From Blasia pusilla (Eukaryota), in contig CM114271.1 of the NCBI GenBank assembly GCA_050084515.1, positions 42,222,001 to 42,286,000 of the forward strand: a DNA stretch of 64,000 bases. Direction: 5' to 3'. The position numbers and the translations under genes were made by a program. This document shows, in pieces, positions 21,766-59,839 of this stretch. Each line of letters starts with the position of its first letter. The first letter of the stretch is position 1. The notes under the pieces are model-generated. The model was not told the DNA's origin. It searched no databases and was given only the letters and a program-made list of their open reading frames with translations.

Positions 21766-22163
21766 CTTCAAAACCAAATCAACAATCAGTTCCCTCTCCA
21801 GCTCCAAACTGCCTTGAAACTTGAACGTACTCCAATTCAAACTCGCGCTCAGGATCAGAGTCACCAATACCCCTCTCCGCACGAGATTGATTCAAGCTTG
21901 GTCCGATCCAAACGTACCTATGGACCAACAAGCGATTCACGTTTCCAAAACGCTCTTCGGTCGTCTACGCGAATTAAAGCTGAAAAGTCTGAAGAGAATC
22001 ACAAGCTGAAGGCTGTCTTGAGGTAGTCGCTCACAGAGAAAAGAGGGACGGTCGAACTGACTGTGGAAGTGTATAAGCGCAGGTCAGCTTGGGATTATAT
22101 GCTTCTCGGGCGAGCCTGCCTGTGACTGAAGCTTTCAGATCAAGGTCACAGCGCATCACCGTC

Positions 22164-23644: not shown

Positions 23645-24110
23645 GCCTAGGGTTTAGGGTTTTTGGTTTAGGGTTAAGGGCCTAGGGTTTATGGTTTATA
23701 GCTTAGGGTTTAGGGTTTTTGGCTTAGGGTTTAGGGTTTTCTACTTAGGGTTTATTGCCAAGGTTCTAGGGTTTAAGGTGGTTGGCTTAGGGTTTAGGTT
23801 TTTTGGTTCAGGGTTAAGGGCCTAGGGTTTAGGGTTTATAGCTTAGGTTTAGGATTTTTGGCTTACGTTAGGGGTTAGGGTTTTTGGCTTAGGGTTTAGG
23901 ATTTATGGTTTCCGGCTTAGGATTTAGGGTTTAGGGTTTTCGACTTAGGGTTTATTGCCTAGGTTCTAGGTTTTAAGGTGGTTGGCTTAGGGTTTATTGC
24001 TCAGGTTCTAGGGTTTAAGGTGGTTGGCTTAGGGTTTAGGTTTTTTGGTTTAGGGGTTAGGATATAAGGGTTTCTGGCCTAGGGTTTACGGTTTACGATT
24101 TATTGGTTAG
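23645..24110 (+). repeat. Interstitial degenerate telomere-like (TTTAGGG) array
   Basis: Dense TAGGGTT(T) units mixed with TTTTGGC variants. A higher-order ~42-bp unit ggtttattgcc-aggttctagggtttaaggtggttggcttag occurs three times. Confidence 0.9.
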
Positions 24111-24549: not shown

Positions 24550-27500
24550 CCTTGTACAGTGAGATCTCCAATGACCGATCCAAAGAGACAAAAGACTCAG
24601 AGTGGAGGATGTCTCATGGTTGTTATATTGGTATTTGTTGATAGTTTTGATGAGTCCACTCTAGACGAACAACTTGCTGCTCACAATAAAGTACTTGGCA
24701 GAAAAGTTCTTCCCGCCTCTCTCTACGACAGAGATATGATCAACGAGGAGTATAGATTACTTCCGACCCTCGGAGAGAACGAGTTTCGGATGGGTGACCT
24801 CGTGGAGATTTTCTCTGGCTTGTCAAAGGTTGGAGCGCGGAAGAATGCCATTGTGGTAAATCCAGGTTGCTGCGTACTGGCGGCTCTAGTGGTGAGTTTT
24901 TCATTCGGAACCTAAGTTCTGATCATAATTACATACATTCTACTTAAGTTCTTATTCATAAGATATGTACCAACTCCCCAAGCTGGTACCCTTACAGGTT
25001 TCGAGCATCCATTTCTAAGCATTTTTCCCGCAAGTGGATGGGGCAACATTGTCGGACTTCTGCCTGAAATTCGATCAATTCTGCAAGATCGATACAAACC
25101 GTAGTCTTCTAAATACTATAGGAGCAAAGGACCCAGACATGGAAGAGGAATCAGAAGATGATGACGAATCAGAAGTAAGCTCCGCGATTTTGTGCCTCGA
25201 ATCATGCCAGAAGTTTGTTTCTCTTCGCACTACTATTCGATTCAAGCAGGCACATTACTGATTTTGGCTGGTTTATGGCTCAGGACGATGGAGTCTCGGA
25301 GAGGGATGAGGAGGAGGGATTGGCTCCTCCAACTTTTGAAAGGGTGACATCGCCGGATGCGTTGATTCCTCAAATTTTGGCAGGGGAAACTAGTGCTCTA
25401 GCTACTCCTGATTCAGCAAGATATTCCGATAGAACTATCCCCACACCGTTGGGAGAAAATATCGTAAGTCAATTTAAGAAGCTCTTTATGAAAAAACTTT
25501 ATGTTTTTTATTGGGACGATGACTATTACATATAGAATTCTAATCTAAGTATCTATTTGCGAAGCAGTCATCGTCGATTGGTGGAAAATCACTTGGACTA
25601 TTGCCGCTCACTCTTGAGGGAGAGAAGGATGACGAAGTGGTGGAGAGCAGATCCAAGAAGATGCCATCGTAAAAAATACCAACTGCGTGAGAAATTTACT
25701 TGATCCTCTATGATCCTCCTAATGCATGCAAATGCTTCCTAGTATTAGTTTCAAAGTAATAGTTTTGTTCTCATTACGTTGAGTGTTCACATGGAGAAAA
25801 TGAGAGGGAGGGACTACGTGGGACGGACAAGCAGATTGCGACATCATCGGGCTTTCCTACTCAGGTGAGCAACCCAATTAATTTTTCCTATTCTAATTTC
25901 AGTTTCCCCGCCTCTTCTTGCACTGATGTAAAACTTAAGTTCTCATTATGTCGAGCATTTTTCCACTACACAGGGAGAAGAGGAGAGAGAGGGACTGCTT
26001 GGGACGGAAAAGCAGACTCCACCCTCATCAGAATCTCCTTCTGAGGTGAGCAACCCAATTAATCTTTCATATTGTGTTTCGAGTTTCCCAGCCTCCTCTT
26101 GCACTGATGTAGAACTTAAGTTCTCATTATGTCGAACATTTTTCCACTACCCAGGGAGAAGAGGAGAGTGAGGGACTGCTTGAGACAGAAAAGTAGACTC
26201 AAGAGGGAGAAAAGGGGATTGAGGGACTCAAAGGTACAGAAAACCTCACTGCAACGTTACCGGCTTCTCCGAATCAGATGAGCAACTAAAGTAGTGATTA
26301 ACTCATCTAAAGTTCTCATTGTATTCAGCGTCTCCACACTTTGAATTTAGAAAAGAAAACCTCATATTGTGGTTTCATGCAAGAGTCACTCGATGGAACA
26401 CGTAGTAGGTCGACGTCTGAGTGTTCATCGGTTGGTGACTCGCAACTTAGAAAAGTAGTAAATACTATCCTAGGGAATGACTTAGACACTACACTCAAAA
26501 TATCAAATTCTGACGACTCTACATGCAATTTAACAATCAAATGTGTAAATGCACAGAAAAATGATACGTCTCAAGCTCAACCTCAAGCTCCAGTGTCTAC
26601 AAATCCTGCGGCTTTGGCGAGGAGTACATCGCCAAAGAAAGCTGCTAGGCCAAAAAATGAAGGGAGAACGAACATTGACATCTCCGAGACACGTACAGTC
26701 ATCGCGCCGAAGGCTTCTCTAGGAAATATGGACCGAAAAAAAAACACAAAACGGATCCCACGTAGAACAGTATCAACGACAGTTGGAGACTCTAGCGATT
26801 TGGGGCTTCTCCGGAAATTTTAGCCTTGAAACCTTTCAAAGAAAAAAAAGCAGATTAACCCATCCCAAGCACATGGAACATCTCCAGATAGTACTAGCTG
26901 GAGACAAACATCAACCGGAGGACCTGGTCCTTGGTAAGACTCAAACATCATAATCTTTACTATGAGGGGTTTCACACAGACTTTGATTATGCCGAAAGAG
27001 AGTTGAGATTACTAGCGAGTGGTGGTTCCATAAAGTCGAGCATGGAGGATAAAACCTCCTTGGAAACCATTAGGGAAATGAGTGCGGAAATTAGATCTTT
27101 GGATTTTAGCACCTGGGGGTGTTTGAAGTGACAGTCATTTTGATACATATCTTAATCCAAACTTCACTTCCCATTCATTCCTCTATGACTACCTTCTATC
27201 AATTGTTATATGAAGTGTAAGGGTTTTGCCCTTGCATCCCTTCTGCACACGAGTGGTGCAATAGTTAATGTAATGTAACTAGTCCAAGAGTTGAGGACTT
27301 CTACTTTCATGCTATGTTTCATTTTTTCCTCCAACCTTGCATCGCCTTTGTATTTATGTATCCTTGGATTCTGATGAAAGAAATGTTTGATGCAGACTCG
27401 GCCTAAATCTAGTAAAATCATGCTGCTTTCTGAATCGCACGAGGTCTTGCTTCTTGCCTTGCTTATCGAAATACTGGAAACTTGAAAAGTATTAGCATCA

Positions 27501-31004: not shown

Positions 31005-32150
31005 AATCTCTTGGGTGCCTTTTTGGGAGTCCTTGGATTCCATTTTTGCTGAAACGTGACAAGAGTGCTATATGCACCTTGGGGACCATGTGGGCCAAAT
31101 GTCAACTCAAGATGACAAAGTTGGACAAGATGAAAAAGAAAAAGCCTTATTTTGATAGAAGGTCTGATGGTTCGAGTCCAAAAAGGAGTAGGTATTTTCT
31201 TAGCTTTTGCTCCCAACTCCATTTAGCATGAAAAATGGCAAGACTGCAAGATGAACCTTGTAGACCATTTGGGCCAAATTTCATCTCAAGATGAGAGATT
31301 TGGAAAAGGTGAAAAATCATAAGGACTTCTTTTCATTCAAGGTTTAATGGTTCGGGTCAAAAAAGGAGTTAGTAATTTTTGAGTTTTTTTTCACAAGTCC
31401 ATTTTCACTGAAACTTGGCAAGAGTGTAACATGCACCTTGGGGACCATGTGGGCCAAATTTCAACTCAAGATGAGAGAGTTGGACAAGATGAAAAATGAA
31501 AAAACCTTATTTTGGTAGAAGGTTTAATGGTTCAGGTCCAAAAAGGAGTTAGTAATTTTTGAGTTTTTTCTCACAACTCCATTTTGAGTGAAACTTGGCA
31601 AGAGTGTCACATGCACCTTGGGGACAATGTTGTGAAAATTTCAGCTTAAGATGAGAAGGTTGGGCAAGATGGAAAATGAAAAAAACCATTTTTTCATAGA
31701 AGGTCTGATGGTCCGGGTCCAAAAAGGAGTTAGTAATTTTTGGGCTTTTTCTCATAACTCCATTTTGCATGAAACTTTACTAGAGTCTAACATGCACCTT
31801 GGGGAATATGTGGCACAAAATTCAGTTCAATATGTGAAAGTTGGACAAGATGAAAAATGAAAAAAGCCTTATTTTGATAAAAGGTCCGATGGTTCGGGTC
31901 CAAAATGGACTTGCCACTTTTTGAGCTTTGGTCCCAACTCCATTTTGATTTAAACTTGGCAAGAGTGCTAGATGCACCTTGGAGACCATGTGGGCTAAAT
32001 TTTAGCTGAAGATGGAAACGTTGGACAAGATGTCCGGTTGAAGACCTTTTGTTTCATTCAAGGTTATCTACTTCGGGTCCAAAAGGTCATTTAAAAATTA
32101 ATTTGGGATGAGACTTTGCCAGAGTGATAGATGTTACTTGGGGGCCATCT
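31005..32150 (+). repeat. 180-bp tandem (satellite-like) array, ~6 copies
   Basis: gggaccatgtgggccaaat-like motif at 31082, 31261, 31441, 31621, 31801 and 31981. Confidence 0.95.
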
Positions 32151-32999: not shown

Positions 33000-35181
33000 C
33001 TCCTCTTCCCCTAGCTCTAGTCACGCACATCCCACCTCCACGAGGAATAGTCCTTTCCATCTCAATATCAGCTTCACCATCATCAATTTCTTGTGTTGGC
33101 TGTGTCGAAAACATCTCCCACTCTCTCTCGAAGAATCCAAAGAGTTCCTCTTGTGTTCAACGAGGGTAATAGTATGTTCGAGGATATCCGCCTTCAGTCC
33201 TTTGAGGAATATCTTGCCATAAGAAAGGTGGCAAGATCAATTCGAGTCTCCTCAAAACAAGCTCATCCATCAATGGATTTTGATGATGGTTTAGCGCAAG
33301 TTGTCGAGTTGTGTTGAGGGCGTCTCGAACTTCTTGTGAATTCAACCCTTGAGCAAAGAAGAAGTTTTCCGCCTCTCAATTTTGGAGATCAATGGTTGTT
33401 CTGTGGATGAGCTCTCCTTGATCATACATGTCAATAAAGCGGACCAACCATGCTCGCATTGCCTGATCAATCCTCCACCGGCGAGGGAATTCTGCTTGAA
33501 CCACCCCATCTATGTTCACTTCGGGATTATATTTCGATCGGGGGCTACGATGTCCCAAACTAAAAGTAAAATTTTCTTGCTGTTGGGTTAATTTGCGATA
33601 AGTGGGTGGTGCATGGCCATCAGAAGCGTGCAAAGAAATGCCGAATAGGTGATAGAGTCTTCTTGACAAAGCTTGTCTATAAGTTGGACATTTGTGAGAT
33701 AGTAGCATGGCCTTTTGAAGACAATATGGATGGCAATAACAAGCTTTACATGTGCCTGTCACATAGCAACCTTCTGCAGCAATGGGGTTGAAGCAGATCA
33801 TGCATTTGGACCAATTGTTTGGCGTGAGGGCCCCTCCTTCACATATTGCGATTGCCTTCATCCAATCCGGAAGATCTTGCACTTGTGTATTTGGATTAAG
33901 AGGCATTGGTGCCAACATCATAGAGGCATAGTTCGCAGCGTTTGGATCTATGACATTGTCCCATGCTGCGCGTAGAGGTGGAGGCCACAACTGCTTGATA
34001 GGTTGAAATAAGATCATATCAACCTCCTTCACGATACGACCCTCAAGTAGGGTTGTCTCGGGGGTGAGTCCTCCCATGTTACCTCTTGCTCTCCATCGCA
34101 ACAATTCATCCAGCTCTTGCTGTCACCTTGCCATGATGTTCTTGTATGCTCTCCTTCATTGCTATGTGTGGTCAACCATTACAGATCTTTGCCTTCTATG
34201 GAGGTCATCTCTGGAAATATATTCGTTCAAAAGCCTCTCCATCTCTTTCTTCAATCTGATGTGCTCCTCAGATAGCTGTTCATATTTCCCTTTCAAAAAG
34301 TTGAATTCCGCGGCCAAATCAAAATTACGTTGGGAATTTGTTATTAAACTCTCCAACTCTAATAGACAAGACATTACCTCGCTATTATCCAGAGCACTCT
34401 CCTTGCGAAAGGATTGGGGAGGAGCACCCCTATGTATAGGACGATCAAAACTCTCCACGGGCTCATCAAAGCTCGTACTACAACCTATATAGAGGTCATT
34501 CAAACCATCTTGTCTATCCTCTTCCCCCATCTATACTCGCCCTTCATCTCCACTCTTGTCTTGTATATATTCTTCAGCACGATGATTTCTTCTTTGACCA
34601 TCCAAGGAAGATAGTATGGCTCTAAGGCTCCTTGACAATCCATCTTGCTAATAATGGCGTGACGAAGCCTGTGGTGATGAAGCTTCCACTCTTGCTCGTT
34701 GAAAGTGTTGCTGTAGGGTTCTACTGTCTTCTTCTCTTGGTCTCTTATCTCTTCTTGAAGACCCCTCATCTACATCACCATACTAGACCTCCATATCCTT
34801 CATCAACTTCGCGACTTTGAGTTGAATAAATACCTTGCTCACTAACTTCCTCTTCCTCTTGGGAAGGTCTTCGTACTTTTGGATGCCATTGAATAAAACC
34901 CAATCCTTTGTCCAGTCATTCTCTTCCACTTTCCTTGCAAATTCTCTAATCTCATGCTCCGGCCACTTCAGCCGTGACTTCTTGAACTCTCCTTTCAAAA
35001 CTTGTGGATCAATGGCGCTATCCAAGTGCGCCTTCAATTCATCTTCCGTGAAGAATTGCGAGACCGTCTTCTTGTTCACCTTTGGAGGGATCTCTAGTGT
35101 CGGTGTATCAAGGGGTTCTTCCCCTCTTCCATCTTCTTGATTGTGGTGAGGGCTACGGTCTTCATGAGGTGGTAACTCCAT
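33000..35181 (-). pseudogene. Decayed gene encoding a coiled-coil plus RING-finger protein
   Basis: Chain of ORFs 34783-35232, 34500-34769, 34162-34530 and 33376-34104. RING-like CMIC...C..C..HPYCL...CPTYR at ~33676-33804, where the last Cys has become Tyr. Confidence 0.6.
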
Positions 35182-35399
35182 CTTGTCTTTTACCGAAATA
35201 CAAAAAGAAAGGTGATTTAGAAATGATTCCAATAATAGTGATACGATGACACACGATACATCCGCACATCAATCAAGATTCATCATTTACAAAATTTCAT
35301 AGTAACATATTCATCTTTTTGAACCAAGTCTTTCATTTCTCATGAAAAATATCCAATCGTCAAACGGGTTTACAATCATACTACCATTGTTATTGGCCT

Positions 35400-36753
35400 T
35401 ATCCTGAATCTACATCATCTACACCTAATACTTTTGCATTTGCTCTGATATATGCAATAAGAAACTATAAGCTTTTGCGATCAGAGGGATTTGGAGCTAA
35501 TGTCCACTTTTGAATCCTTTCCAATAAGTAAATCTCACGTTCGCTTGGGCATTCCCGACAGAGAGGTTGTATGTCACATAATTCAAATTCTTCACAATCA
35601 TTCCTAGGGCTAAGATTTTGTGGCCTTGCTAAAAGGGAGATTCAGAGGCCCTACTGTGAACTCCGGTGCTATATGCCAAATATGATTTTTTGTTCATGTT
35701 GCCACCATTTATGAGAAGACTCTAAGACTTCATCAATCCACATGGTATTCTCACAATCTCCAACGCCCATGTATGGGCTAGACTTGGATCCAAAATGGAT
35801 GAGCGTGTTTCTAGCATGGAGGTTGGTATGAAAAACCCCACGCTTGTAGAGAGTCTCCATGGTACCAAGAAGGGAAACCACAAGCTCGACGACATTTGAT
35901 GCTATTGCGAGACATCTCATCTTTTCCAGCTTTCCTAGATTGTCCGTGTTGTTCTTCAAGTTATGGCATGCTTGCAACCAATTTTCGAGGTGTCCACTAT
36001 TCCAATATGGAAAAATGGCACGCGGTGGATCCTGATCAACCTTCCCACCATGCAAACAATACCGCAATGTAAAATACTCGCAAAAAACTCCTCTCGCATC
36101 ATTGATTTTCTAGATCCTGATAGAGATGATTTCTTATACACCTTCATGCAATAGTACATTTTTTCCCTAAAGCCATGGGTTCTATTTATTTTACAATGGT
36201 AAAAAATTCCGTGTAAAGCGGTTCCCACAATATCGCTCAGGTCATCTCTTATTACTATATTCTTATCGGAAATCAAAGTTATTGCACATGGAACGGTCAA
36301 TATCAACCACAAAGAAGTACTATGTCCCTTGAAAAGACGTTGAGTACTTCTTAACTCTATACTGAATCTTTCTAGGAGAGCCAAATCTGCAGCATTCTGC
36401 TTCTTATCCTTATATGTCTTGAGATCGACATACGCTCTCTCCAGGTTATTACCTTGTTGGGCACAAAATTTAGTCATCCTATCAGCCTTCGCGACATCCA
36501 CTTCCTAGTCAATTGCCTTTGTCACTCTATTGGATAATCTCTGTAATTCCAAGGTGTAGTCATATAAACCATCCATACCCCTCAAAATGTAGGATCGTCT
36601 CTTGTCTAAAGAAAGCTGGAAAAACCAGTTTAAACATGCCTCTCTTAAGGCCATGTTGAAATCATTCCTCAGAGTTGCTCTTTGCCTCTTGGCACCGACA
36701 TTGGACTCATTTCGGTTCTCTCCCGCTCTCGATGATCCAACCCCACTAGACAT
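35400..36753 (-). pseudogene. Divergent protein-kinase-like pseudogene
   Basis: VGTALHGIFY (G-loop-like), YCMKVY, REE (helix C), IFPYWNSGHL, VFHTNLHARNTLIHF (catalytic-loop-like), GVGDC, and KWTLAPNPSDR (subdomain XI, ~35470-35510). Stop and frameshift present. Confidence 0.65.
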
Positions 36754-37009
36754 TTCCCTTGGATGAAGAAGATAATAATATCTTAAAAAATACAAGGGAA
36801 AGAAATTTACGGGTTGAGATAAGAAAATACCGAAAAGAGAATGACGTGAGATGCTAAAACAATGGCTTAGAATGTACCAGCGCATGAATGATGGAAGTTT
36901 AGGGTTGGGCTCTCAAAGGGAATAGGTAGATATGGGCATGTTTAGATAAGGTTCCTTGATCACCTCCACATCCCCCATGTGCTAAGGAGAACCAATGAAA
37001 CTTGTGAGT

Positions 37010-37590
37010 AAACGTTCAAAAATTACTAACTCTTTTTTGGACCCAAACCATTAGACCTTCTATGAAAAAATGATTTTTTAAATTTTTCATCTAGTCCAAC
37101 TTTGTCATCTTGAACTGAAATTTGGCCCACGTGATCCCCAAGATGCATATAATACTCTTGCCAAGTTTAAGTCAAAATAGATTTGTGAGAAAAATCTAAA
37201 AAATTACTAACTCCTTTTTGGACCTGAACCATCAGACCTTCTATAAAAATAAGGTTTTTCATTTTTCATCTTGTCCAACTTTGTCATCTTGAGCTGAAAT
37301 TTGGCCAACATGGTCCCCAAGGTGCATCTAGCACTCTTGCCAAGTTTTAGGCAAAATGAATTTGTGAGCAAAAGCTAAAAATTTCTAACTCGTTTCTTGG
37401 ACCCGAACCATTACACTTTCTATCAAAATAAGGTTTTTTCATTTTTCACCTTGTCTAAATTTCCCATCTTGAGTTGAAAGTTTTTCTACATGGTTTCCAA
37501 GGTGCATGTTCCACTCTTGCCAAGTTTCAACTTAAATGGAGTTGTGAGGAAAACCTCAAAAATATGTAAATACCTTTTGGACCCGAACTT
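37010..37590 (-). repeat. Same 180-bp unit as 31005-32150, inverted, ~3 copies, cut on the right
   Basis: aaattactaactc-ttttggacc-like motif at 37019, 37201, 37380 and 37560 is the reverse complement of ggtccaaaaaggagttagtaattt in the left array. Confidence 0.93.
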
Positions 37591-37595
37591 CGCTA

Positions 37596-38319
37596 GATGT
37601 GCCACTTTGGAGTTCAGGCGGTGCACTACGGCAAGAGGCTGATCGCCTAGTGCAGGAGGCTTGGTGTGAGGCTGTTATACCTCACGAGGAAGAGGAGGCC
37701 CCACGGCGGACTCCTACTTCTGGTTCAGTTGGGTTATCCCCTTTGGATACTAAACCTGGAGGGAATTTGTGTATTAGATCTCTTTGGTGGGATTAGCACT
37801 GGTTTGGCTGCAGTGTTGCAGACCGGTATTCCTGTGTGGAGATACGTGTATGTGGAGCGAGATGAGACAGCCCAGAGAGTCTCATCCTGACATATCGGTC
37901 AGTTGATGTGGAGAGATCCTGAGTTGTTGCCGCCATTAGCTATTCATGGGTACCAGCGTGCTTTGCCGCCACACATTGCATTGTTGGGGGCGCAGGACCT
38001 TGAGAGGGTTGGTCCTGTGGATTTGGTGATTGCTGGATGGTCATGTCAGGGTCATACACGTGTTGGTAATGGTTAGGGATTACACGATCCTAGGTCTCTA
38101 TTATTTTGGGAGATGTTACGGGTGTTACGACATCTTTAGGTTCATCAGGCACGTGCTCTAGCTTACATTTTGGAGAATGTTCCATTATTGGGTGACACTC
38201 GGACCCGGATGATGGCGAGTGTTCATGAGGTGTGGTCCTGGATTGGACCAGTGGTGTTGTTGGATGTAGCGCGAGTTCGTTCGCGTGCACATTGTCCACG
38301 CTTGTGGTGGACAATCTTG
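37596..38319 (+). pseudogene. Second copy (fragment) of the retrotransposon DNMT3-like methyltransferase
   Basis: Reverse-complement homolog of ~2990-3720: ICVLDLFGGISTGLAAVLQTGIPVWRYVYVERD...GPVDLVIAGWSCQGH...YILENVP...RAHCPRLWWT in one frame with several stops. Confidence 0.92.
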
Positions 38320-38709
38320 GAGGTGCGGTAAGAGGAGAGGAAGAGAGGAAGAGAGGAGAGAGGAGAGAGGAAACTACCTTCAACCGAAATAGATACTTTT
38401 TTTTTAAGAGAGTTTCCGTTGGGTTGAAGAGAGGAAACTTTTTGTGTGAATTTTTTTGCACTTTTTTGTTCAGTTATTAAGCAATCCCACAGTTTTTTTT
38501 TTCTCTTCCATATTTTGGCAACCCATCTGAGTCCAACCGGTTGCAAATTGCACAAAGTATACAAAACTGAAAAATGAGTGGAATCATAAGTGTGGAATCA
38601 ATCACTTTTTCCATCCAAGGTCTGGAAACAATCTACCATTTGCCCTGGGCTGAATAGAGTTCAAGCTCAAAGTGAAGGTTCTTGAAAAATGAAAGTAAAA
38701 TCTAAAACC

Positions 38710-41700
38710 TCATTTTGCATCCTCAAAGTGGTTTTTTAAAATACTTCGTACTTCTTTGAGGGACAGAATTGGTTGGTGGATTCCTACTCCTACCTCCGAC
38801 TCTCTTAAAACTACTAGCAATACATAGTACATGTGCTTACAAGGGAAATATCTTTTGCCACTTGTCTCTCTTTGGACAAAGTCATCACATGAACATGTGG
38901 GAAAGAAACAGATGTGCACCACATACACCCCTGTGATACTTGATTTACCGTCTTGTTCCTGACCCAATACATCCTTCCTATTCCATTGCCACTCAAGACA
39001 TCTTTCGTGGCGATGATCTCCATTTTTGCCTCCTGAGCTTATGCAATTTGCTTTGCTCTCTCCACCGTTGGCCTACACATTCTGTTTCTCTTCATCCCAT
39101 TTCTAGACTCAAACAAAAATAGTGGATTGAGATCATCCACCTTCTCCGGGAACATGTTGACATCAATCTTGGGTTGAATACAAAATGCGAAGGTCTCTGT
39201 AATGCGAACATGCTCCAAACTTCCCCTGTCTACGAGTCTGAAACCGGCACTTGTAAGATTGTCCACTTTGTCTTGAGTGCAGTTCGTACCTGCGGCGATG
39301 GGCCAAATCGTGGGGGTATTCCCCGGAGCTCCAATGGCAGCCGGATAAGACTTCCGGAAAGCGCAAGATTCATTTGGGTAGAAGAAGTACTTCACTTGAT
39401 CCCCGGTCCTCGTGAAACGATCAAAGGTTTTGAGACCCCAAAACCCAGGTAGTGGTCGTCCAGTCCTTGTATAGTTCTGATTTAGGAAAGTGCCGCATGC
39501 TCTCCTAATGCCATCAGATCCTGCCCTGCAGGTGGGTCCATGTCCTAGGTTGCTCCGAGATATATGCCACCGTTTTAGGTTGCAATCCACCTCCATTACC
39601 AGAATCCCATATTGTTGAACCACCCCAATGACAGGATGTTGCGAACTTCCAGCAACGGAGGGCTTTTGAAATAAAATATTCACTGATTTTGGAGAAGTAA
39701 CTCCATCACGGATTTGGGACGGGTCCGGGGTCCCCGAATACCTAGGCGGCGTAATTTCCTCATCCAAATCAATCACCGGATTCGTTCCTCGATGCTGCCT
39801 CTTCACCTGCCTGAAGTCAAGATACTTATCTGGTCTCCACGAGTCTCGCTCGAGCTGCTCTACCACCATCTGTATGGGACGTCTTGAAACCCGCCCACGA
39901 ATATCCCCACCAACGTGTACGTCTTGCTCGAGGGGAGTTCTAGCTACGCACCGGTTGAAGGCTTCCACATATATTTTTTCATCACCAGATCTCACAGCCG
40001 CTCTGACATAGAGCTCGTAGATCGACGGCCCCCTTCCTTTTGTTATGCCTTTTGTGAGGAAGATATGGGATAATGAGACTGTAGCGTTGCTCTTGCTTGG
40101 TCTTGTTGGCATGCCTATACAAGTGAAATTTGTTGGCATGCTTGTGACGACCTTCAGGAGGAATGAACACTTTCTGCTCCACTTGTGTTGGGGTAGAGGG
40201 CATTTTCATGAACGTTCAATCCCTACAACGACGGCAATCTTAGAAGGGAACGAAAATAACTCAGCAGTCAAAGACATAAGCTACCGGTCGGAACCAGACG
40301 GGTTGCAAGGCCGAGGAATCCCATGAACGACTCTGCGACCCGTCGGGTCTCGACATGTTGCAACCCTAAACCCACCTACTGCAACCCGTCGGATTCAGAC
40401 GGGTTGCAAGGCCGAGGCATCCCATGAACGACTCTACGACCCGTCGGTTTCCGTCGGGTTGCACACTCGGCCAACCCGTCGCATCCCACAGCTTGCTTGG
40501 TTTTTTCGGTTTGAAATCCCTATAGTTCCCACGCTTCTCAACTTGAGCTGCAACTTTACAAACAATTCTCTGCGTGAGCTTGACAAGACAAAATAGTGAA
40601 CTCACCTGCCGCATGAAGTTTCCCCATTGTCTCATACGCATATCCATTAACTCAACCAAGAACCTGACTCTTTGTACTTCCCTCAATCGCATGCTTCCTC
40701 CACCACCCATGAAGTTCTTCCTGGCATTCCATGGCCTGCTTCAAGGTTTTGTTGTCCTTGCAGCGTTGGAGTAGAGTGACATGCTCTGTCCTCTTATTCT
40801 CCTTGATGCAAGATTTGGTGTACTGGGTCACAGACAGATTTGGTGTACTGGAAAGCATCCGACCTTTCCCTCTCCGGTTGAACCTCTCCACCCCAGAACA
40901 CTTCTCGGATAGCAATCCACCCAGGTTGTGCATTGTCCGCCATGAACCCATAAATTTGGCCTTTTGTTTTCCTTCACCACCTCCAATAAGAGTAACCAAC
41001 ACATCTTCAAACTGCCAACGTCTTCTGCCTTTACTTCATAGAAAAATATAGTTTTTAGTCTCTTCTCCACATGGTCATAAACATGAGCACCCATCGTCAA
41101 CCATCCGTTCAACACTCTGTAACAAATATCAAAGCTTACCCAACTGCCGTAAAGATCTTGCCCTTCCCTCATTCGATCTATAAGATCAAGGCCACTCGAC
41201 GGACCCGTGGTTGACATTTTGAAGACATAGGCCCTGGATCCCTCGCCTCCTTGGCCCATGAACTGCCACCTCTGAATGAATGGAAATGTGGAATTGGCCT
41301 TGATTCTGGCGATGGCATCCATTTCGGCCGTCTTTCCATCCAGAACTCGTATTTGACGCAGCAAATTCCGGAAGCATTCAAGATCAGCGAGAAATGCGAG
41401 ATTTTCCCAAAGTTGTTTCTACTCAGCCGCCGTGATCTCGCCCTGTCCAGGAATTCCAAGCAATTATTCAAAAATTTGTGATGCCGTTGTGAGCTTGATC
41501 ACTCCGGGCTTTGAACCCGGAGAGTTTATGTAGACCTCGGCAACTTTCTTCGCCACATCCTCCTTGATGTGTCTCTGAATTGCATCGGTCACAGGATGAG
41601 TGTGGGAGCCAACATGAACTGCTAGCCTTGTGTACTCTAATGTGGAGCCCAAGTCGTGGACAATGAAAAATATGTATGCAGAACACGCTCCAACGCAGAA

Positions 41701-42441
41701 GGGCGATGCCTGACAATGAGGACATCGATGGCCTCCTGGAGGTATGGTGGCACCGACCTCGTATGGAGTTTCTACATTCTTGGGGGGGAATTGCGACGTA
41801 TTGGCTCGCCCGTTGCGCTCTAGATACGGGCATGCTGGACTTCTACACTCCAAGGCTCCCACACATTGGCGGCTGGAGACAATCCAAGGACCATCTGGAA
41901 TTGAAGCACTAGTCCGTTGAAGCCTGCACCATCGATGATAATCAAACTTTCTATCCATACCCTTCAGGCGTCCTCCGTCTTTCTTTTGAGCAGGAGCAGC
42001 AAGTGGAGGCAACTCAAAAATGCAATTACCATCGTACGTGGGCGGCAGCTCGTTGACAAGAATGTGCTTGAACATTTTCAAGGCCAGAGACGAAAGCAAA
42101 CTATTACCTAATACTCGCAAGAGGAACGAGTAGGCGGACAGAGGGCCCGGTTGGTGTCCGACAGATCCACTGAGGTTGATAACATCCAGAATCTCTTCAG
42201 GAAGAACATTGATACGAGCGTGTGAAGTTGGAGTCGAAGCCGGATGTACTGGGCTAAGAGTTGCAAACGTAGAGCTCGTAGCACTAGGAAATTCTCCATC
42301 GTCTACTTGGGAAACAGACGAATTCAGGGGCAGGCCGTAAACTCTGTATTGACCATTTGCTAGAGGTAGGAGATTCCATACTTTACGGTCTGCAGTCACT
42401 GGCTGGACTGTCTCACCTATTATGTCCTCCGTACCCTCCAC
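38710..42441 (-). mobile_element. Mutator-like (MULE) DDE transposase pseudogene with an N-terminal GCM-like zinc domain and a C-terminal SWIM finger; one 383-nt intron
   Basis: GCM-like region RQCVGALECRSPACP...CPHC...C...VGSHTHP. D1 in WVSFD (41128-41130), D2 in GFMADNA (40935-40937). Intron 40223-40605 (GTGAG...TAG). E in PNTSGAESVHSS (40172-40174). SWIM CSCDDF...PCKHMYYVL (38710-38967). Nonsense and frameshift lesions throughout. Confidence 0.75.
40280..40485. repeat. Cluster of 27-bp palindromes inside the transposase intron
   Basis: Copies at 40280-40306, 40335-40361, 40381-40407 and 40436-40462, plus a half-copy at ~40471, arranged as a 101-bp dimer repeat. Confidence 0.85.
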
Positions 42442-42816
42442 CCTAACATCTTTGGATACAAAGATGGTTCCAATTTGGAGAAGAAATCAAACAGAGAGAA
42501 AATTTTCATCCACTGCTATGAAAGACTCACGAGCTTGCGGTTGAATGATTTCTGATTGAGGAAGGGCCGCCAGATGACTTCCACAAGTGAGCTTCACATA
42601 ATTATCCATTCGCAGAAATTTCGTACGGGAGGAGGGTGAGAATGAGAATTTTTAATTTATAGTGAATAGAAAAATAGATACTCCTGACGGAATTTTACTG
42701 ACAAGATGAAGTTCGGTAGGTGACATTGTCTGACACAATGGATCCAATTCTGTTGCAATGTGTTACCGGATTTGGGAAGCAGAGACGTGGGTTGCGAAGC
42801 ACACTTCATTTTGTTG

Positions 42817-43190
42817 GAACCCGTCGGAGTCTTGGTAACTCAACAATTAACCCAAGCTAAACGAAGCCTACAACCCGTCGGCTTCAGACGGGTTGCACGC
42901 TTCTGCCTTACCTTCAAACGCAAACATGGTTGAAGCTGGCAACCCGTGGCTCTCCGACGAACTGCTCGGATACCGCTCCTTCTTGCCCGAAGATGTCGGA
43001 GGTGTGCAAACCGTCTGTTCCCGACGAGTTCCGCGGGTGCCGCACCTATTTGCCCAAAGACCTGATCAGATACTAAGGGGCATTTCACACGGCGAGTCAT
43101 CGTGAGTCGATACGAGGGAACGAGAGCGAGACGATTCGACCGAACGAGAGCGAGACGGTTCAAGTGAACGATCGCGAGACGATTCGAGCT
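42817..43190. repeat. Intergenic palindrome copies (~68-bp spacing) followed by a 24-bp tandem repeat
   Basis: Palindrome-like copies at 42870-42896, 42939-42965 and 43007-43033, with a half-copy at 42817. A cgattcgaccgaacgagagcgaga-type unit repeats about three times at 43108-43190. Confidence 0.75.
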
Positions 43191-43277
43191 ACCCATCAAG
43201 GTGACTCATCTCGACATCAGAGAGGTGACGGATCAAGTGATTCATCGTGGACATAGGTGGAGGCATTTCCGGGAAAA

Positions 43278-46200
43278 ATGACGAGGAAAAAGTCTCCAGC
43301 AAACAAGTCTGGGAGCTTCACTCCGAAGTCCATTAGGACTCCTGCGTCAGCATCTCCAGGGCCTTGTTCGGCAAATGAAATTAGGCAGCAGGAAATCGAG
43401 GAGCGGGAAAGGGAAGGGGAGATGCACAACCAGGAGCTTCTTGCGAGACGTGTTCAAGAGGCGCTCGATAGACAGAATGCAGAGGCTGAGACGTCGCAAG
43501 CCTTGAAGAAAAGGATCGCCGACGAAAAGAGAGAAAAGAAGTGTCTGGACGCGTCGGTGAGGAGAGCATAATTGGCTAAAGCAAGGAGGGAAAAAGCGAT
43601 AGCCATTGACGACAACCCTGCCCGTCCAACCGAAAGTGTTGAGATGCAGGAAATGTCCCCGATGAAGTCCGGGGACACAATCAACATAGCGAAAACGCCA
43701 AAAGTTCAAATCACGGACGATGAGGTCATAAGGACCGCCAGCGTGGAGATGGTGGACATTGCCGAAGAAGCCGGAGAGCGGTCATTCTCGTCTCCAAGCC
43801 CGGTGGAAGACATCGACCTCTATCGGATTGACGAGTTCCCAATCGATTTGCCAGCTGCTGTCTCAGACAAGTTGGCTGGTCAAGAAACCGACCCAATTTT
43901 CGAGCGGGTAAGAGAGGATCTGGGTTTTTTGAATTATGTGAATTGCAATTCATTGGGAATTCAGTGTAGCTTATTGATCTTGTCCGTTTCTGATAGGTGG
44001 TAAAGCAAATGGCACTGATGGAAGGCCACAACGCCCCGAGGATTCCACTCTGCCGATTGCGGACAATGGAATACGTCCGCAAAATTCAGTCCGACGAGGA
44101 CATCGCGAAGCTTAAACAATCGGCGGCGACAGCATCCTACGTCGACAACTTTCCTCCCTTCTATGTTTAGCCTTACGACGAGTATGGAACCCAAGCCCTG
44201 GTTACGGAGGAGGACTTGGATAAGCTCGACACATTCTGGAGGATGAGAGACTAGGATTTCAGAAGGCAAGTAGAGGGCACGGAATTCAGCTGGATGAGGA
44301 ATCTGTATTTCTTCATCTGGGATGGAAATCACAAGTTCATGGCGTGGACCAAGTTTGCAGAGGAGCGGCCCAACTCCTTGGAGGCACATTTTTGTGTGAA
44401 GGCAGTGGTCCTTCATCCATTCCCTCATCACATGGCGACGGTGGAGATGGCAATGCATGCCATGAACACATAAGTATCTTCTTGCTGCAAACCGTCAGAC
44501 TCCCACAAGTTGTTTGGTTAGGCACTGTTGTTGGGATGCTTTTGGCCAAACGCAACTCGTCGGACTCCGACGAGTTGCTCGATTGATGAATGGGTAAGGT
44601 TATTTTTTGCTGAAAGCAACTTGTCGCATTTCGACGAGTTGTTCGACTGACCACAGGTTTAGTAAGTTTTTGGCCCAAAGCAACCCGTCGGACTCCGACG
44701 GGTTGCTCGTCTCGCCGCCTTTTCAGGATGTTTTTTGAAGAAAGCAACTCGTCGGACTCCGACGAGTTGTTCGACTGACCACAGGTTTAGTATGTTTTTG
44801 GCCCAAAGCAACCCGTCGGACTCCGACGGGTTGCTTGACTCGAAACTATTTGGAGGTTTTTTTTATGTTTTTGGCGGAAAGCAACTCGTCGGAGTCCGAC
44901 GGGTTGTCTTCGGAAGTTGGTTTAGCAAATTTTGCATCAAATTCCAAGTTTCCATTCAATTGCGCAACGTGTCGGACTCCGATGGGTTGCTATGTTCACG
45001 TTTGATACGGAATATCTAACAACTCGTCGGAGTCCGACGGGTTGAAACCAGATATTCACAAATGTGAATGCAATCCGTTGGACTCCGACGGGTTGCATCA
45101 TTTAGCTTGTTGCTAGAATTCGACCTTAAGCTGTGACGACCCGTCGGAGTCCGACGGGTTGCAGGAACCCATGTAACTTACAAATTTTCTGACGGGTTGA
45201 GTTTGGATGTGCAGGATTGTATCAGAGGGGAATGTCACCCACCACTGGATCCAAGACTGCGATTGGGTGAAGAAGGTGCTTACGACGCACCCGGCAGAGT
45301 ACAAGGGGTTCTTGGGCGACGCCCTGGTAAATCAGATGCTTGCAAAGGGTGCAAAGATAAAGAAGAAAACTTGGGCAAATAATTTTATTTCCCAAGATGC
45401 AACCGTAACCATCCTTTGCTGGTCGAAGATACAGGCCGCGAAGAAGAGCCCTGCACTAGAGCTGGAGCGGTGGGAGAAAGTATCTGGGTCTGAGCGTGCG
45501 AAATTCATCCAAGCTGCAGTATCTACAGCCATGAAATACACGGCGAGCAAGATGCAGCGATACATCAGCATTCTCAACCCCGAACTTGGTCCGGAGTTTT
45601 ACAAGGAGCTAAAGGCGATTATCAAGCGCCAGGGGAAAAGGGATGAAGATCCACAAGGTCGGATTGGGGAGAAAGTGTCCCTGGACCGCGTGCATCGGTT
45701 TGCGTTGTCCGGCATAAGCGAGTTTAGGAGGATCCGATTGATGAAAATCAGTCTCGAGGGCACAGAGGCCCAGAAGAGTGCACAGAGGCACACCATCCTC
45801 CACGTGTGTCTGATCCAGTGATCTCCCACTGGCTACCCGAATGGTCGTTCTGGGAGGCATTGCAGGTTATCAGGAAGTCCGTGCTGGACGGTCTGCAAGC
45901 GGAGCTCAAAAGATTAGAGCCCATTCCGGATGAAGCAAACCTGGAAAGTTCTGTAGATTTCGAGGTTTGGCTCGACGACATCCTGGACAAGCCAATCAAA
46001 AACCCAAGATTCAAGACAATGTTCAAGGTTTGCGTCCTCCCTCAGGCAGAGCTTGACGAAGAAATTGAGGGGAACAAACGGGATCAAGCAAAGAAGAAGC
46101 GAGATCTACAAGAGCAAACGGCCGATTCAGTTCGAGTAAACGCTGCCCAACGGATGGTCTTCAGGTACCTTGTCCAGTGTAAGAATGCAGGTACCTAGGG

Positions 46201-46965
46201 AAAATTACCGGCAGCCTTGAAATTGTGGGCTTCGCGGCGTGATGGAGAGACATTCTCCATGTACGACATGGAGATGGGGCAGCACATGTCCAATTGGGAG
46301 GTGGAGAATTGCCCCATTTGGCCTGACTTCAACGACCCTGAAGACATCACCAATAAGGATTTACGAGTGCTTCATGATGCAGTGGCCTCAGGACAAGACA
46401 ACATCCCCAATTTTGTGCAGCCTGAAGACTTCTTCGGAGGAGATGCGGAAGAGCAAGCCCACGAGACAACTGAGTTGGCTTCCAAGGTCCGCACAGCCAA
46501 AGACAAATCCACAGCGGGTCTCAAAGGCAAGGCGAGGGGAGGGAAGAATTCCGAGGCCGAGTCTTCCCAAAGAGAGGCTGAAGATTCAAGGCCAGAGGCG
46601 GAATCGTCCGGGCGAGCGGGGAGAGAGGGTCGGACTAGGTCCTCGGCGAAAAAAACCCCACCAGAGTCTGAGGTCATAGAGACCCCGACAAGCCGTCCGC
46701 AGACTCGGGAGAAGCGGAAGCGAGAGGTGCCAGGGTTGTCCCAAGAAGAATACAATCCATCATCCTTGGGAAGACATAGACAAACAACGACCCGGACAAG
46801 CGTCCTCCTTCAGTTCACTCCTTTACTGGATGAGCTGAAAAGCTTCAGTTCTCAAGCGTCGACACCAGCCATTGATAAATTGACAACGTTGGGACGGAAG
46901 CTCCAACAAAATGGGCACGTTGCTTGGACGGTGAATGGAGTGGTCGGAGAGGTTGCGGTGAAAAC
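43278..46965 (+). pseudogene. Large three-exon gene with a ParB/sulfiredoxin-like domain, decayed and 3'-truncated
   Basis: ATG at 43278; intron 43938-43996. Exon 2 reads RIPLCRLRTMEYVR...YFFIWDGNHKFMAW (motif at ~44318-44347). Intron 44470-45214 has its donor mutated to ATAAGT but is phase-consistent. Long exon 3 corresponds to ORFs 45207, 45806 and 46217. Confidence 0.65.
44487..45199. repeat. Array of 11 full-length 27-bp palindromes (GCAACCCGTCGGA-C/G-TCCGACGGGTTGC) with variable spacers, inside an intron
   Basis: Starts at 44487, 44552, 44616, 44680, 44744, 44808, 44881, 44964, 45019, 45070 and 45136. The first six are 64-65 bp apart (37-38-nt spacers). Confidence 0.95.
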
Positions 46966-46969
46966 CCTT

Positions 46970-47420
46970 AACAAATCGTCGGTAAAAGTTTGCCAATCGT
47001 ATGAATGCACAAACTTGACTCACATCTATAGGACATGGAATGCGTGAGATAGCGTCTCGCTTTGTCTGCTGAACACCAAAGCCACTTGGGTATATTGTAT
47101 GATCCAAATACTCAATCTACTCGTAGAAGAACTTGCACTTGCTTAGATGTAGCCTTAGCCAATGTAACTGCAATCGTTGAAACAACTCCTATAGATGTCG
47201 CTCATGCTCGCTAACGGTGGTGCTAAGGACTGAAATGTCATCAATATAACATCTAGAGAAATCCAGATGATATCCAAATGGTAAGTAACGCCGCTGATAC
47301 AAAAAATCCTTTGTATGAGGAATGATGCCCCAAAATGCCGTCTTTTGCGTACCCTCCAATCTGATAGGTTGGTGATGATGTCTAGTTCAAAGATCCAACA
47401 AACTAAAGACCTTCATCACA
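46970..47420 (-). mobile_element. RT fragment of the same gypsy family as 1-5060
   Basis: HTIYPSGFGVQQTKRDAISRIPCPIDVSQVCAFIRLANFYRRF parallels HVIYPGGLGVQQAKMEAIALIPRPIDVSRVRAFMGLANYYRRY. YIDD and KTAFWG are also present. Confidence 0.88.
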
Positions 47421-57331: not shown

Positions 57332-58963
57332 CTACGATCGACATTCTACCGTGACTTGCAGCCCTTTCTTCATTTTTATAGTGAACGCAAGATTGTATTG
57401 CACTTGGACATCGGGCGACACTTTGACTTTGAATCGGGACAGAACGGACGCAGCAACGTATTTCATCGTGAGCAAAGCCAAGTCCTTTCCCGGGCATATT
57501 CTGGGACCACAAGAGAAGACGGAAAATTCGAACGGGTCTTTGGGAACGAAAACACCGTTCTGGATCCATCTCTCCGGCTTGAAATCCATGACATCAGGTC
57601 CCCAGATGCTCTCCATTCGTCCCATGGCATAAATATACACGTACACTATATCCCCCTTCCGTACCTTCGTACCATCCGGCAGAACATCGTCAATTGCAGC
57701 TACCCTCCCGCTCACCGGTGTCGGAGCGTACAGTCTCAAGACCTCATGCAACGTTGCTTGCAGGAAGTACATTTTCTTGAGCTCGTCGTAGGTGAATGGT
57801 TGCGGAATTGGGGATAGGTCTGGGGGAGTTCTGGCACTCAAGATGGATTTGATTTCATCGAGAATTTTTAGCTCCACCTGGGATTGAGAGTCCAGCACCC
57901 AAAAGAAGTACGTAAGGGCAGAAGAAGTGGTATCTTTACCGGCCAACAAGACGTTGCACACCATGTCTTTGATCTCGGTGTCCGAAATGAGTTCTTCTTG
58001 TGCTCGAAGGATGTAACGAGACAGATAATCTGAATGCGTGCTGTGATCATGAGATCCGGGCTCCTGTCCTCCTCGATCGTCCTTGGACTCCTCCAGCTGC
58101 AGCAGTTCCTGCTTTCGGGTTTGAATAGTGGACAGGCAGAAGTTTTCTAGCCCCTGAAGAGCTACCTTCAACTTCCTCTCGAACCCAATATTGAGAAATC
58201 TGCACAGCCGCCACAGGAAAGTAGGGACGAAGAATCTCGTGGAGATGTAAACCTTGGCGTCATTTAACGCTCGATAGCACTCATTTTCAGGAAAGGATGG
58301 GTCCACGGCCCCTGGGGCAACGGCAATTGTCATTTCAGAGACGAAGTCAAACCCAAAGCGCACCAGCACATCTTGGAGATCAAAGGTGGAGCTCTTACGA
58401 CCATGGGCGGCGTCAGCGCTGGCAGATGCAGACAGCAGGGGCAGAAGCCTGTTATGTGTTTCGTCTCGCAACAAACCTATCACCACCCTTCGAAGAGAGC
58501 TGGCCGAGAACTCACGGTTGATCATCTGCCTCTGGTGTTTCCAGGCCTCTCCCTCCACGTTCAGAATTCCACTACCCAAGAAATCCCTCAGCGGGAACAA
58601 GAGCGCCTCTCCCTTGGGATATTTGTCAGCGTTGGTCTTGAGAATGTGCTGAACATTCGCGGGATTGGCAGTGGAGATCAACGTCCTCCCAGCCAATTCC
58701 TGGCGCATAGTATTACCTGGAATCTCCTGGAGATAATCAGTAGTCCAGGTATGTATTCTTTGCAGATTCTTCAAGTACTCGATCTGGCATCCCACGAATG
58801 GATAATTAACGGGTCCAGGGTGCGTGCCATTACGAGTCCATGGGCCGTCCTTGGTCCACCACCGGAACACCTCCCACACGACCCAAATTCCAAGAACTCC
58901 CATGATCAAGTCAACCATTCCCGGCCACGAGCTCATAGTCGCGACAATTTTATCGGAGTCCAT
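57332..58963 (-). CDS. Cytochrome P450, CYP86 clan (CYP94/CYP86-like fatty-acid hydroxylase), 543 aa, intronless
   Basis: N-terminal TM anchor, GPVNYPFVG, NVQHILKTN..KYPKG, AGKDTT (I-helix), EVLR (ExxR), FKPERW, and heme motif FSCGPRICPG. Intact ORF. Confidence 0.95.
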   Translation of the reverse strand: MDSDKIVATMSSWPGMVDLIMGVLGIWVVWEVFRWWTKDGPWTRNGTHPGPVNYPFVGCQIEYLKNLQRIHTWTTDYLQEIPGNTMRQELAGRTLISTANPANVQHILKTNADKYPKGEALLFPLRDFLGSGILNVEGEAWKHQRQMINREFSASSLRRVVIGLLRDETHNRLLPLLSASASADAAHGRKSSTFDLQDVLVRFGFDFVSEMTIAVAPGAVDPSFPENECYRALNDAKVYISTRFFVPTFLWRLCRFLNIGFERKLKVALQGLENFCLSTIQTRKQELLQLEESKDDRGGQEPGSHDHSTHSDYLSRYILRAQEELISDTEIKDMVCNVLLAGKDTTSSALTYFFWVLDSQSQVELKILDEIKSILSARTPPDLSPIPQPFTYDELKKMYFLQATLHEVLRLYAPTPVSGRVAAIDDVLPDGTKVRKGDIVYVYIYAMGRMESIWGPDVMDFKPERWIQNGVFVPKDPFEFSVFSCGPRICPGKDLALLTMKYVAASVLSRFKVKVSPDVQVQYNLAFTIKMKKGLQVTVECRS

Positions 58964-59839
58964 GCCCCCACCTGCTGATGAAATCTGACGGAGCGATTTG
59001 TACCTTCACACTTGCTTGAACTAAGAGATGTTGCAAGCCTTCAAGCTGGCATCGTCCCGGACCCACAGGCGGATCCAAAATGAAATCGTGCCTCTGGGTG
59101 ATACTCCGTCGGAATCTAGCTGGGAAATTACATAGGACACAACAGACTATCTAAGCCTTCGAACTGAGAACGAGAGGGTAAGCAGTCCGAACCTGAAACT
59201 GTACGTACGTTTGGATTCTTTGAACTCTGAAACGGAATCGAATTTCAACCGTGTTCGAGCAGGTTCTAATCGGCCAGACACAGTACTCTCTGTAGAACAC
59301 GACTTGTGTTCGGAGTTTTTGTAGCTGACAGTCACGCTCTGGCTTCTTTGTTTGTTCGCGTCGACTTCGCGGGCCAGCATCATTGCGAGCTCACACACAC
59401 ACAATCGCGGTCTCGTTTCTGTGTTCGTGGGACGTCATCATTTCGAGCTCCAATGTACTCATTATACTCATTTTGCTCTACCCGGATTTCCACAGAACCG
59501 GTACATTCCAGGTATTTCAATGGTGGTCGGCTATGTGATAACAAAATAATACCAGGTCAACACGTAATACCGAACGTTGATTCTGCTTCATGAGAGGACA
59601 ACTCATGCATTAACTGGATCAAAAGAGCAAGCTCAGTCATCCATTATTCGTGAGTCTACCGGAATGAGACAGGAATTCTGACACGCGTAAATTTTCCATC
59701 GCGTCTTTCCCAAAAAATCATCACAAGTGCGCGATGCTCGCTCCTTTGACGCCACGGAACTGGTGTTCTCACACTTTACACTTTAGTGTGCACCAGGAAA
59801 TAGAACCTGCTCGGATCATCGTAGCCCGGGTAATCATTA

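Follow-up and report, generated by a model that had tools for sequence, protein, structure and literature searches.

Palindrome arrays of a Mutator-like transposon in Blasia pusilla as candidate binding sites for the element's own ParB-like accessory protein

The palindrome array at positions 44487 to 45199 of a 64,000-nucleotide stretch of the Blasia pusilla genome (assembly GCA_050084515.1, contig CM114271.1, positions 42,222,001 to 42,286,000 of the forward strand; hereafter the window, from whose first letter positions are counted) belongs to a Mutator-like transposon (MULE) that carries, beside its transposase, an accessory gene for a ParB-like protein. We propose that the palindrome is a double-stranded DNA site bound by this predicted accessory protein, and we give this reading a probability of about 0.6. 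The feature is real, the CRISPR (clustered regularly interspaced short palindromic repeats) label under which it was first described is wrong, and we regard the system as a variant, borne by a Mutator element in a land plant, of a class of transposon accessory systems that have been proposed to target their own element.

The array comprises 11 units of the form GCAACYCGTCG-GA(C/G)TC-CGACGRGTTGC and one half site. Rescanning the window by mismatch count against the unit at 44680 returned the same 11 units as the preliminary description, each with 0-6 mismatches (starts at 44487, 44552, 44616, 44680, 44744, 44808, 44881, 44964, 45019, 45070 and 45136, the last ending at 45162), while five shuffles of the window gave no match at six or fewer mismatches. 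The half site lies downstream of them at 45188. The steps between units are 65, 64, 64, 64, 64, 73, 83, 55, 51 and 66 bp, which bears out the period of 64-65 bp noted for the first six, and spacers 3 and 5, singled out as the only near-identical pair, are indeed 97% identical, against 46-65% for the remaining pairs among the first five. The array was also correctly placed within intron 2 of the accessory gene (44470..45214, + strand), whose GT..AG joint is spliced in 6 RNA reads mapped to another copy. The palindromes are not particular to that intron: the same scan finds eight further units in the window, at 38518, 40280-40462 and 42870-43032, and the motif occurs in nearly every non-coding part of the element.

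The likeness to CRISPR does not hold. Each unit type, as defined by its flanks, is met 4-33 times among the copies of the transposon, so the spacers are inherited and common to copies at other loci, which excludes acquisition of the CRISPR type. No Rfam match was found in 38000-47200, and the neighbours of the array are the transposase and the accessory gene.

The element in the window (38320..46960) was delimited by BLAST against 20 other copies, picked from the best matches without stops in the 390-Mb assembly, which align with this interval. It is a decayed copy of a transposon of ~12.3 kb, full copies measuring 12.2-12.8 kb. The copy is dead: both genes contain stops, the intron 2 donor at 44470 is AT, ~500-650 bp are deleted at 43061, and the right ~3 kb are missing. 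Target duplications of 9-10 bp with at most one mismatch flank six of the eight copies in which both ends were found, within the 9-11 bp that define MULEs. The right terminus occurs 1,203 times at up to one mismatch, giving a family of at least 1,200 copies; a first look with accessory exon 2 gave 2,903 candidates in the genome, and each of the 150 that were scored was at least 90% identical. The left terminus (38320..38373, + strand) has a GA-rich subterminal repeat, of which an inverted counterpart lies near the right end. Long terminal inverted repeats (TIRs) were not found: the ends share this subterminal inverted stretch of ~35 bp and their outermost bases differ. Long TIRs are absent in the non-TIR subgroup of MULEs. 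Several copies (in the flanks of loci L022, L035, L119 and L121) are inserted in other copies of the family, some of them near palindromes.

Across the family the motif reads GCAACCCGTCG-N5-CGACGGGTTGC, a 27-bp palindrome with 11-bp arms. The pattern GCAACYCGTCGGANTCCGACGRGTTGC has 1,881 exact places in the genome and its reversed control none. We inspected 23 distinct motif places, drawn from the 50 heading the list for one contig, and all of them lie in copies of the element. In this sample the motif belongs to the transposase/ParB family, a point that the preliminary description had put forward as a check. Five full copies hold 30-38 units each; two of the units counted as lying in the transposase exon come from an approximate interval that also takes in part of the intron array. 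One unit stands alone ~195 bp from the left end, and the others form five clusters: one within the intron of the transposase gene, one separating the two genes, one in each of accessory introns 2 and 3, and one in the 3' tail. The second unit from the left lies 1.6-2.0 kb in, and 770-1,570 bp separate the last from the right end. In the 3' tail of one copy (L029, +4400 to +5500 from exon 2) we observed an internal duplication with a spacing of ~620 bp, ~72% identical, with two palindromes in each half.

The palindromes are conserved where their surroundings are not. Comparing the divergence of the two, as had been suggested, we found that among 47 unit types seen at least four times (clustered by their flanks) the arms are 83% identical between arrays and the flanks 26%, which supports the initial proposal of a site for a dimeric protein as far as comparison of sequences can. 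The core varies in sequence and keeps its length, with 5 nt in 2,221 of 2,333 sites with perfect arms. Three copies of diverged subfamilies (~70% DNA identity) have the motif at the same positions between spacers that can no longer be aligned, and synonymous divergence (dS) is near saturation there, at 1.05-1.86 in four of five accessory regions. Tandem duplication is evident from a 128-bp higher-order repeat. The supposed phasing at 64 bp dissolves in the larger sample: steps range over 35-98 bp and cluster near 52-57, 63-68 and 72-75 bp, and the bias towards a 10.5-bp period is weak (Rayleigh R 0.23-0.27, nominal p 0.008 pooled and 0.11 in the main family, for steps that are not independent).

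The paired arm changes reported earlier exist at 44552 and 44744, where T at position 6 accompanies A at position 22; at 44881 and 45019 T6 stands with G22 and the change is unpaired. Among 251 intron-2 units, 81 have T6/A22, 25 T6/G22 and 14 C6/A22. Over all unit types, 76 arm changes are uncompensated and eight compensated, and these eight stem from two inherited variants. Symmetric deamination, raised as a caveat to the paired changes, does not account for them, as T6/A22 is an inherited variant of the intron-2 array and not an event of each copy.

The motif moves as DNA independently of genes or introns, since a gene-less miniature of the transposon retains it. Twenty loci chosen by the right terminus alone included one gene-less element of ~570 bp with three palindromes in AT-rich DNA, two internally deleted copies that have target duplications and kept their arrays, and one derivative of 180 bp with both ends and no palindrome, a single-copy case. 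The miniature is itself a family of ~600 bp (560-660 bp), with 206 candidates, of which 40 were scored, and at least 103 copies by junction pattern. Copies at the 14 loci examined have 2-5 called units each, and the loci L113:9389-9950 and L127-L140 have 3-4 palindromes spaced about 84-96 bp. Eight of the 11 miniatures with both ends called have a target duplication of 9-10 bp with at most one mismatch (the best of several offsets). By BLAST, similarity to full copies is confined to the termini and the palindromes, and the middle of the miniature is an inverted repeat around the central unit.

The accessory gene is divergent from the transposase gene and in full copies has four exons encoding a protein of about 1,270 residues. 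In the window, exon 1 (43278..43907, + strand, limits from sequence) encodes a low-complexity N-terminus, contains one stop and may start further upstream; a 24-bp tandem repeat at 43104-43189, directly upstream of the accessory start, is longer in other copies and possibly coding. Intron 1 is 89 bp long and without palindromes. Exon 2 (43997..44469, + strand), which encodes a putative ParB/sulfiredoxin-fold domain, contains two stops, and exon 3 (45215..46960, + strand), encoding a helical domain and linker, is broken and ends just short of the methyltransferase-fold domain present in other copies. The intron 2 donor that is AT here is GT in 19 of the 20 other copies. Three RNA runs under the same species label, each sampled at 6-12%, yielded 241, 365 and 272 reads on another copy and show low-depth transcription of the two genes from opposing strands; with 90-95% likeness to the mapped copy, most reads derive from other copies. 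The joints listed from these three low-depth runs include none for accessory introns 1 and 3.

The gene was under purifying selection, with a ratio of nonsynonymous to synonymous substitution (dN/dS) of 0.05-0.12 in six of seven comparisons of the ParB exon (0.22 in the seventh) and of 0.09-0.23 in six comparisons of the N-terminal half of the methyltransferase domain. Exon 2 encodes the motifs IPLCRL and WDGNHR, the final R being present in 16 of the 20 copies and replaced by K in the window. The window lacks exon 4 together with the last part of exon 3; these carry DLLIADLPSG, and exon 4 matches PF01555 under the cut-off in all three queries, from three copies (E 2.7e-5 to 1.4e-4). A protein search of 1.84 billion representatives returned 39 relatives; the ten homologues looked up were nine hypothetical proteins of Riccia and one ENA protein, the members of one cluster include a protein of 1,207 residues with the complete ParB/helical/methyltransferase layout, and PF01555 matches weakly in one of 40 homologues. 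Word-indexed protein searches gave one match for the ParB exon and none for exon 4, and a PDB search by sequence gave none. For the N-domain, the ESM Atlas offered PF02195 as a lead on 11% of one cluster. Structure models were made of Riccia homologues, 24-34% identical to the accessory protein. A C-domain model (predicted local distance difference test, pLDDT, 69.5) matches CcrM first in Foldseek (E 5.5e-10), followed by M1.HpyAVI and MboIIA (overall range E 5e-10 to 3e-9). The N-domain of a 906-residue model matches KorB (Z 6.8, root-mean-square deviation (rmsd) 3.0, 95 residues aligned), PadC (6.5), pNOB8 ParB (5.9) and sulfiredoxin (5.3); the ParB-N matches as a set, with rmsd 3.0-4.2 over 89-147 residues, have middling scores yet are consistent. 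From these models, the accessory protein is predicted to join a ParB-fold N-domain, a helical domain and a beta-class amino-methyltransferase fold. A genome search with the Riccia methyltransferase domain led back to the same transposon family in all 12 loci examined.

On the proposed mechanism, a dimer of the accessory protein would bind the palindrome with one subunit on each 11-bp arm, and the sites would have been multiplied by tandem duplication wherever coding permits. Spreading from these sites like ParB and KorB clamps, the protein would coat the element and keep the copy usable despite host CG and CHG methylation, open for transcription of both divergent genes and for transposase at its ends. 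A coat that leaves the ends open to transposase would explain why the gene-less miniature retains the sites; the miniature needs no transcription, and the benefit would therefore have to include transposase access. Beyond binding, we are less sure of the parts. An anti-silencing or licensing outcome is put forward tentatively, nucleotide-dependent sliding by the accessory protein is doubtful, and real methyl transfer, perhaps at a central GANTC, appears unlikely. GANTC, the CcrM-type site, forms the core of 32 of the 42 units in miniatures and of 41 of the 82 units in diverged copies, but of only 7 of the 29 unit types that the main family has outside intron 2. The most elaborate version would be a plant-transposon parS/ParB system. 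In it a nucleotide-gated clamp would load at the 27-bp palindromes and slide along the element, and its amino-methyltransferase domain, its active site remodelled, would deposit N6-methyladenine or N4-methylcytosine, perhaps at the GANTC core; either the clamp or the mark would then make the ends competent for transposition, with the 600-bp miniature as minimal substrate. Taken whole, this version is unlikely.

Several observations weigh against binding by the accessory protein. The ParB-fold scores all stay below Z 8 and both models are of the distant Riccia homologues; Foldseek gave no match at E<=0.001 for the 906-residue model; and Pfam found no ParB domain in any exon and scored PF01555 below its cut-off. 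The fold and the permuted motif order are those of beta-class methyltransferases, and the (D/N/S)PP(Y/F/W) motif is not found: motif IV is DLPSG, without an aromatic residue, motif I is DLVGLSG, and the homologues have DLPTG, DMPSG, DIPTG or DVPEG, the aromatic residue being absent in every one read. The first unit of six of the 11 aligned miniatures has a 6-nt core. The mean arm identity of 85% over 82 units of the diverged copies is inflated, since the detection threshold sets a floor of 68%. CpG transitions affect 198 of 3,875 positions in palindromes (5.1%), 5.2% in flanks and 5.4% in exon 2, so that the present copies, which this decay shows to be methylated at CG and CHG, give no sign that palindromic CpG is protected from deamination. 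Finally, a metagenome scan for relatives of the accessory protein gave 11 loci at 26-33% identity, nine of them under 4 kb, and 10 of the 11 showed no such array. The eleventh (L098, 28% identity) speaks in favour: it has a decayed array of another palindrome, CCCTATGGTCA-N4-TGACCATAGGG (11+4+11), at L098:1569-3063, upstream of its ParB-like exon and with steps near 120-128 bp, a single instance in which protein and site may have changed in concert.

The chief rival for the role of binder is the transposase, which could fill it just as well. Its gene (38710..42609, - strand) has two exons, with stop codons in the window copy and a start codon placed by inference; D, D, E and DAFHW motifs, read by eye, are followed by a SWIM finger at the C-terminus (E 0.0026, below cut-off), the ESM Atlas neighbours are PF10551 clusters (score 0.93-0.96), and the Pfam search found no MULE domain in any exon. 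The intron (40223..40605, - strand, limits placed by homology) holds four palindromes (40280, 40335, 40381 and 40436), and the homologous joint is spliced in 14 RNA reads on another copy. A MULE transposase might bind the palindromes itself in order to activate and synapse an element with termini that are poor inverted repeats, short of true long TIRs, and a miniature that keeps only ends and palindromes fits this as well. The transposase of AtMu1 alone is described as binding and hypomethylating its cognate elements (10.64898/2026.08.24.746577), but the AtMu1 peaks given there are at the TIRs, whereas the present sites are internal, with the single unit nearest the left end (38518..38544) still ~195 bp inside it. 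Inverted-repeat arrays also accompany ParB-like genes in EnSpm transposons, unrelated to MULEs, as far as these are described (10.1101/2025.02.11.637652). We consider a role of the transposase as binder unlikely. The ParB-fold protein is the better candidate on three grounds taken together: ParB-family proteins load at palindromes, arrays accompany ParB-like genes, and the sites lie mostly far from the ends.

The accessory protein might bind its sites as an auto-repressor or copy-number brake, in the manner of a KorB roadblock, and not as an activator. The top fold match is to a repressor, KorB (PMC11790492), RNA depth is low, and the densest array lies on the divergent promoter, where the window retains a remnant of three units between the genes (42870..43032) and most other copies have 8-11. 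Set against this, the gene-less miniature keeps the sites though transcriptional repression brings it no gain, and the family reached its present copy number; we find such a brake improbable. It is hardly probable, either, that the units are sites of a host factor, or that slippage and gene conversion have spread a selectively neutral palindrome. Their decay from copy to copy is close to that of the flanks (about 0.04 versus 0.055) and the 128-bp repeat speaks for such spread, but a CpG-rich pair of arms totalling 22 bp persists across unrelated spacers and near-saturated synonymous divergence, none of the 23 inspected motif places lies outside the family, and 22 bp is long for a host factor. 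That the units act as RNA hairpins, whether as the processed multi-hairpin RNA first suggested, a small-RNA precursor or a splicing signal, is very improbable: the intron folds at -354.8 kcal/mol (z -13.9), some RNA reads cover the array and T6/A22 outnumbers either single change in intron 2, but any repeated palindrome folds strongly, uncompensated changes prevail, units also occur between the genes and in the miniature, and Rfam matches are lacking.

The window holds other features. Retroelement fragments with a C5-cytosine methyltransferase domain beside reverse transcriptase lie at 2902-3351 (- strand; PF00145, E 1.1e-10) and about 37700-38319 (+ strand), with the transposon copy inserted where the latter fragment ends. 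A cytochrome P450 gene at 57332-59005 (- strand) is an intact single frame of 557 codons (PF00067), and a C2-domain gene at 21001-21891 (- strand; PF00168) has a Gly/Tyr/Pro-rich tail. A degenerate interstitial telomere-like tract of about 64 TAGGGTT copies occupies 23648-24108. Three tandem arrays with a period of ~180 bp are found at 25788-26200, 31039-32032 and 36994-37588; the second and third look related to each other, and between them lies a decayed region (33376-36912) with RING-like and kinase-like frames.

Binding of a transposon by its own ParB-like accessory protein has already been proposed for algal transposons in two genome papers, and what is new here is the land-plant Mutator variant; our literature search, whose coverage leaves out most subscription journals, found no report of a land-plant Mutator element of this kind. 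The Blasia family makes the self-binding idea testable: it offers a defined site of 27 bp, a gene that is spliced and was under selection, a natural 600-bp miniature and no fewer than 1,200 copies. Should the idea be true, land plants would possess, beside VANC, a second sequence-specific counter-silencing system of independent origin, assembled from bacterial parts, and a plant genome would have a possible source of bacterial-type DNA methylation.

The closest parallels are algal. In Ectocarpus, Sola1-1_Ec32 has a gene of 1104 residues, opposite the transposase, with ParB-like and N4/N6 methyltransferase parts, whose product was proposed to bind and modify its own transposon (PMC12477816). 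The present element likewise unites both domains in one transposon-borne gene opposite the transposase. The likeness is one of description, and Sola1-1_Ec32 differs in its Sola carrier and its brown-algal host; the available portion of its description includes neither a palindrome array nor a miniature. The red-algal Plavaka elements (PAG2/PAG3) combine a ParB-like accessory gene, tandem inverted-repeat arrays, a PF01555 methylase gene and a very high copy number; self-binding was hypothesised for PAG3, and homologues are also reported in Mutator elements of Chondrus (10.1101/2025.02.11.637652). The present element shares a ParB-like gene with inverted-repeat arrays, a methylase and high copy numbers with Plavaka, which differs in its EnSpm carrier, in the fusion of ParB to a 2-oxoglutarate (2OG) oxygenase and in a methylase-SET fusion encoded by a separate gene. 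The Plavaka arrays are adjacent to PAG3 according to the main text (to which Supplemental Fig. 13 and Table 6 may add), and ours lie in introns and across the element. Methylases fused to a ParB helix-turn-helix (HTH) are also described from chlorophytes (PMC4738411).

The C-domain shares its fold and the motif order IV ... I with CcrM, M1.HpyAVI, the bdelloid N4CMT and Marchantia DN4MT1; it has DLPSG in place of the DPPY or SPPY of beta-class enzymes (TSPPY in DN4MT1), and the present domain is transposon-borne and fused to a putative ParB fold (for further comparison, see 10.1101/2021.02.12.428880). With bacterial ParB/parS and KorB/OB, as described in PMC11790492, the present system shares repeated palindromic sites and, by prediction, a ParB-N fold with an Arg at the GxxR position. 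Unlike ParB/parS, the element is without a ParA partner; for its protein, CTP binding, clamp closure and a ParB-type HTH are hypothetical. Among plant transposons the counterpart is the VANDAL/VANC system of Arabidopsis, in which the motif bound by an accessory protein has accumulated in tandem copies within introns and in intergenic and terminal non-coding parts, according to the portions of PMC5735166 and PMC10398659 available to us. The present motif is likewise amassed in tandem in the non-coding parts of its element. VANC motifs are 8-9 bp long, non-palindromic and variable between families, whereas the present motif is a 27-bp palindrome kept across subfamilies; and anti-silencing has been demonstrated for VANC, whereas here it is only proposed, for an accessory protein that appears to be built from bacterial ParB and methyltransferase folds.

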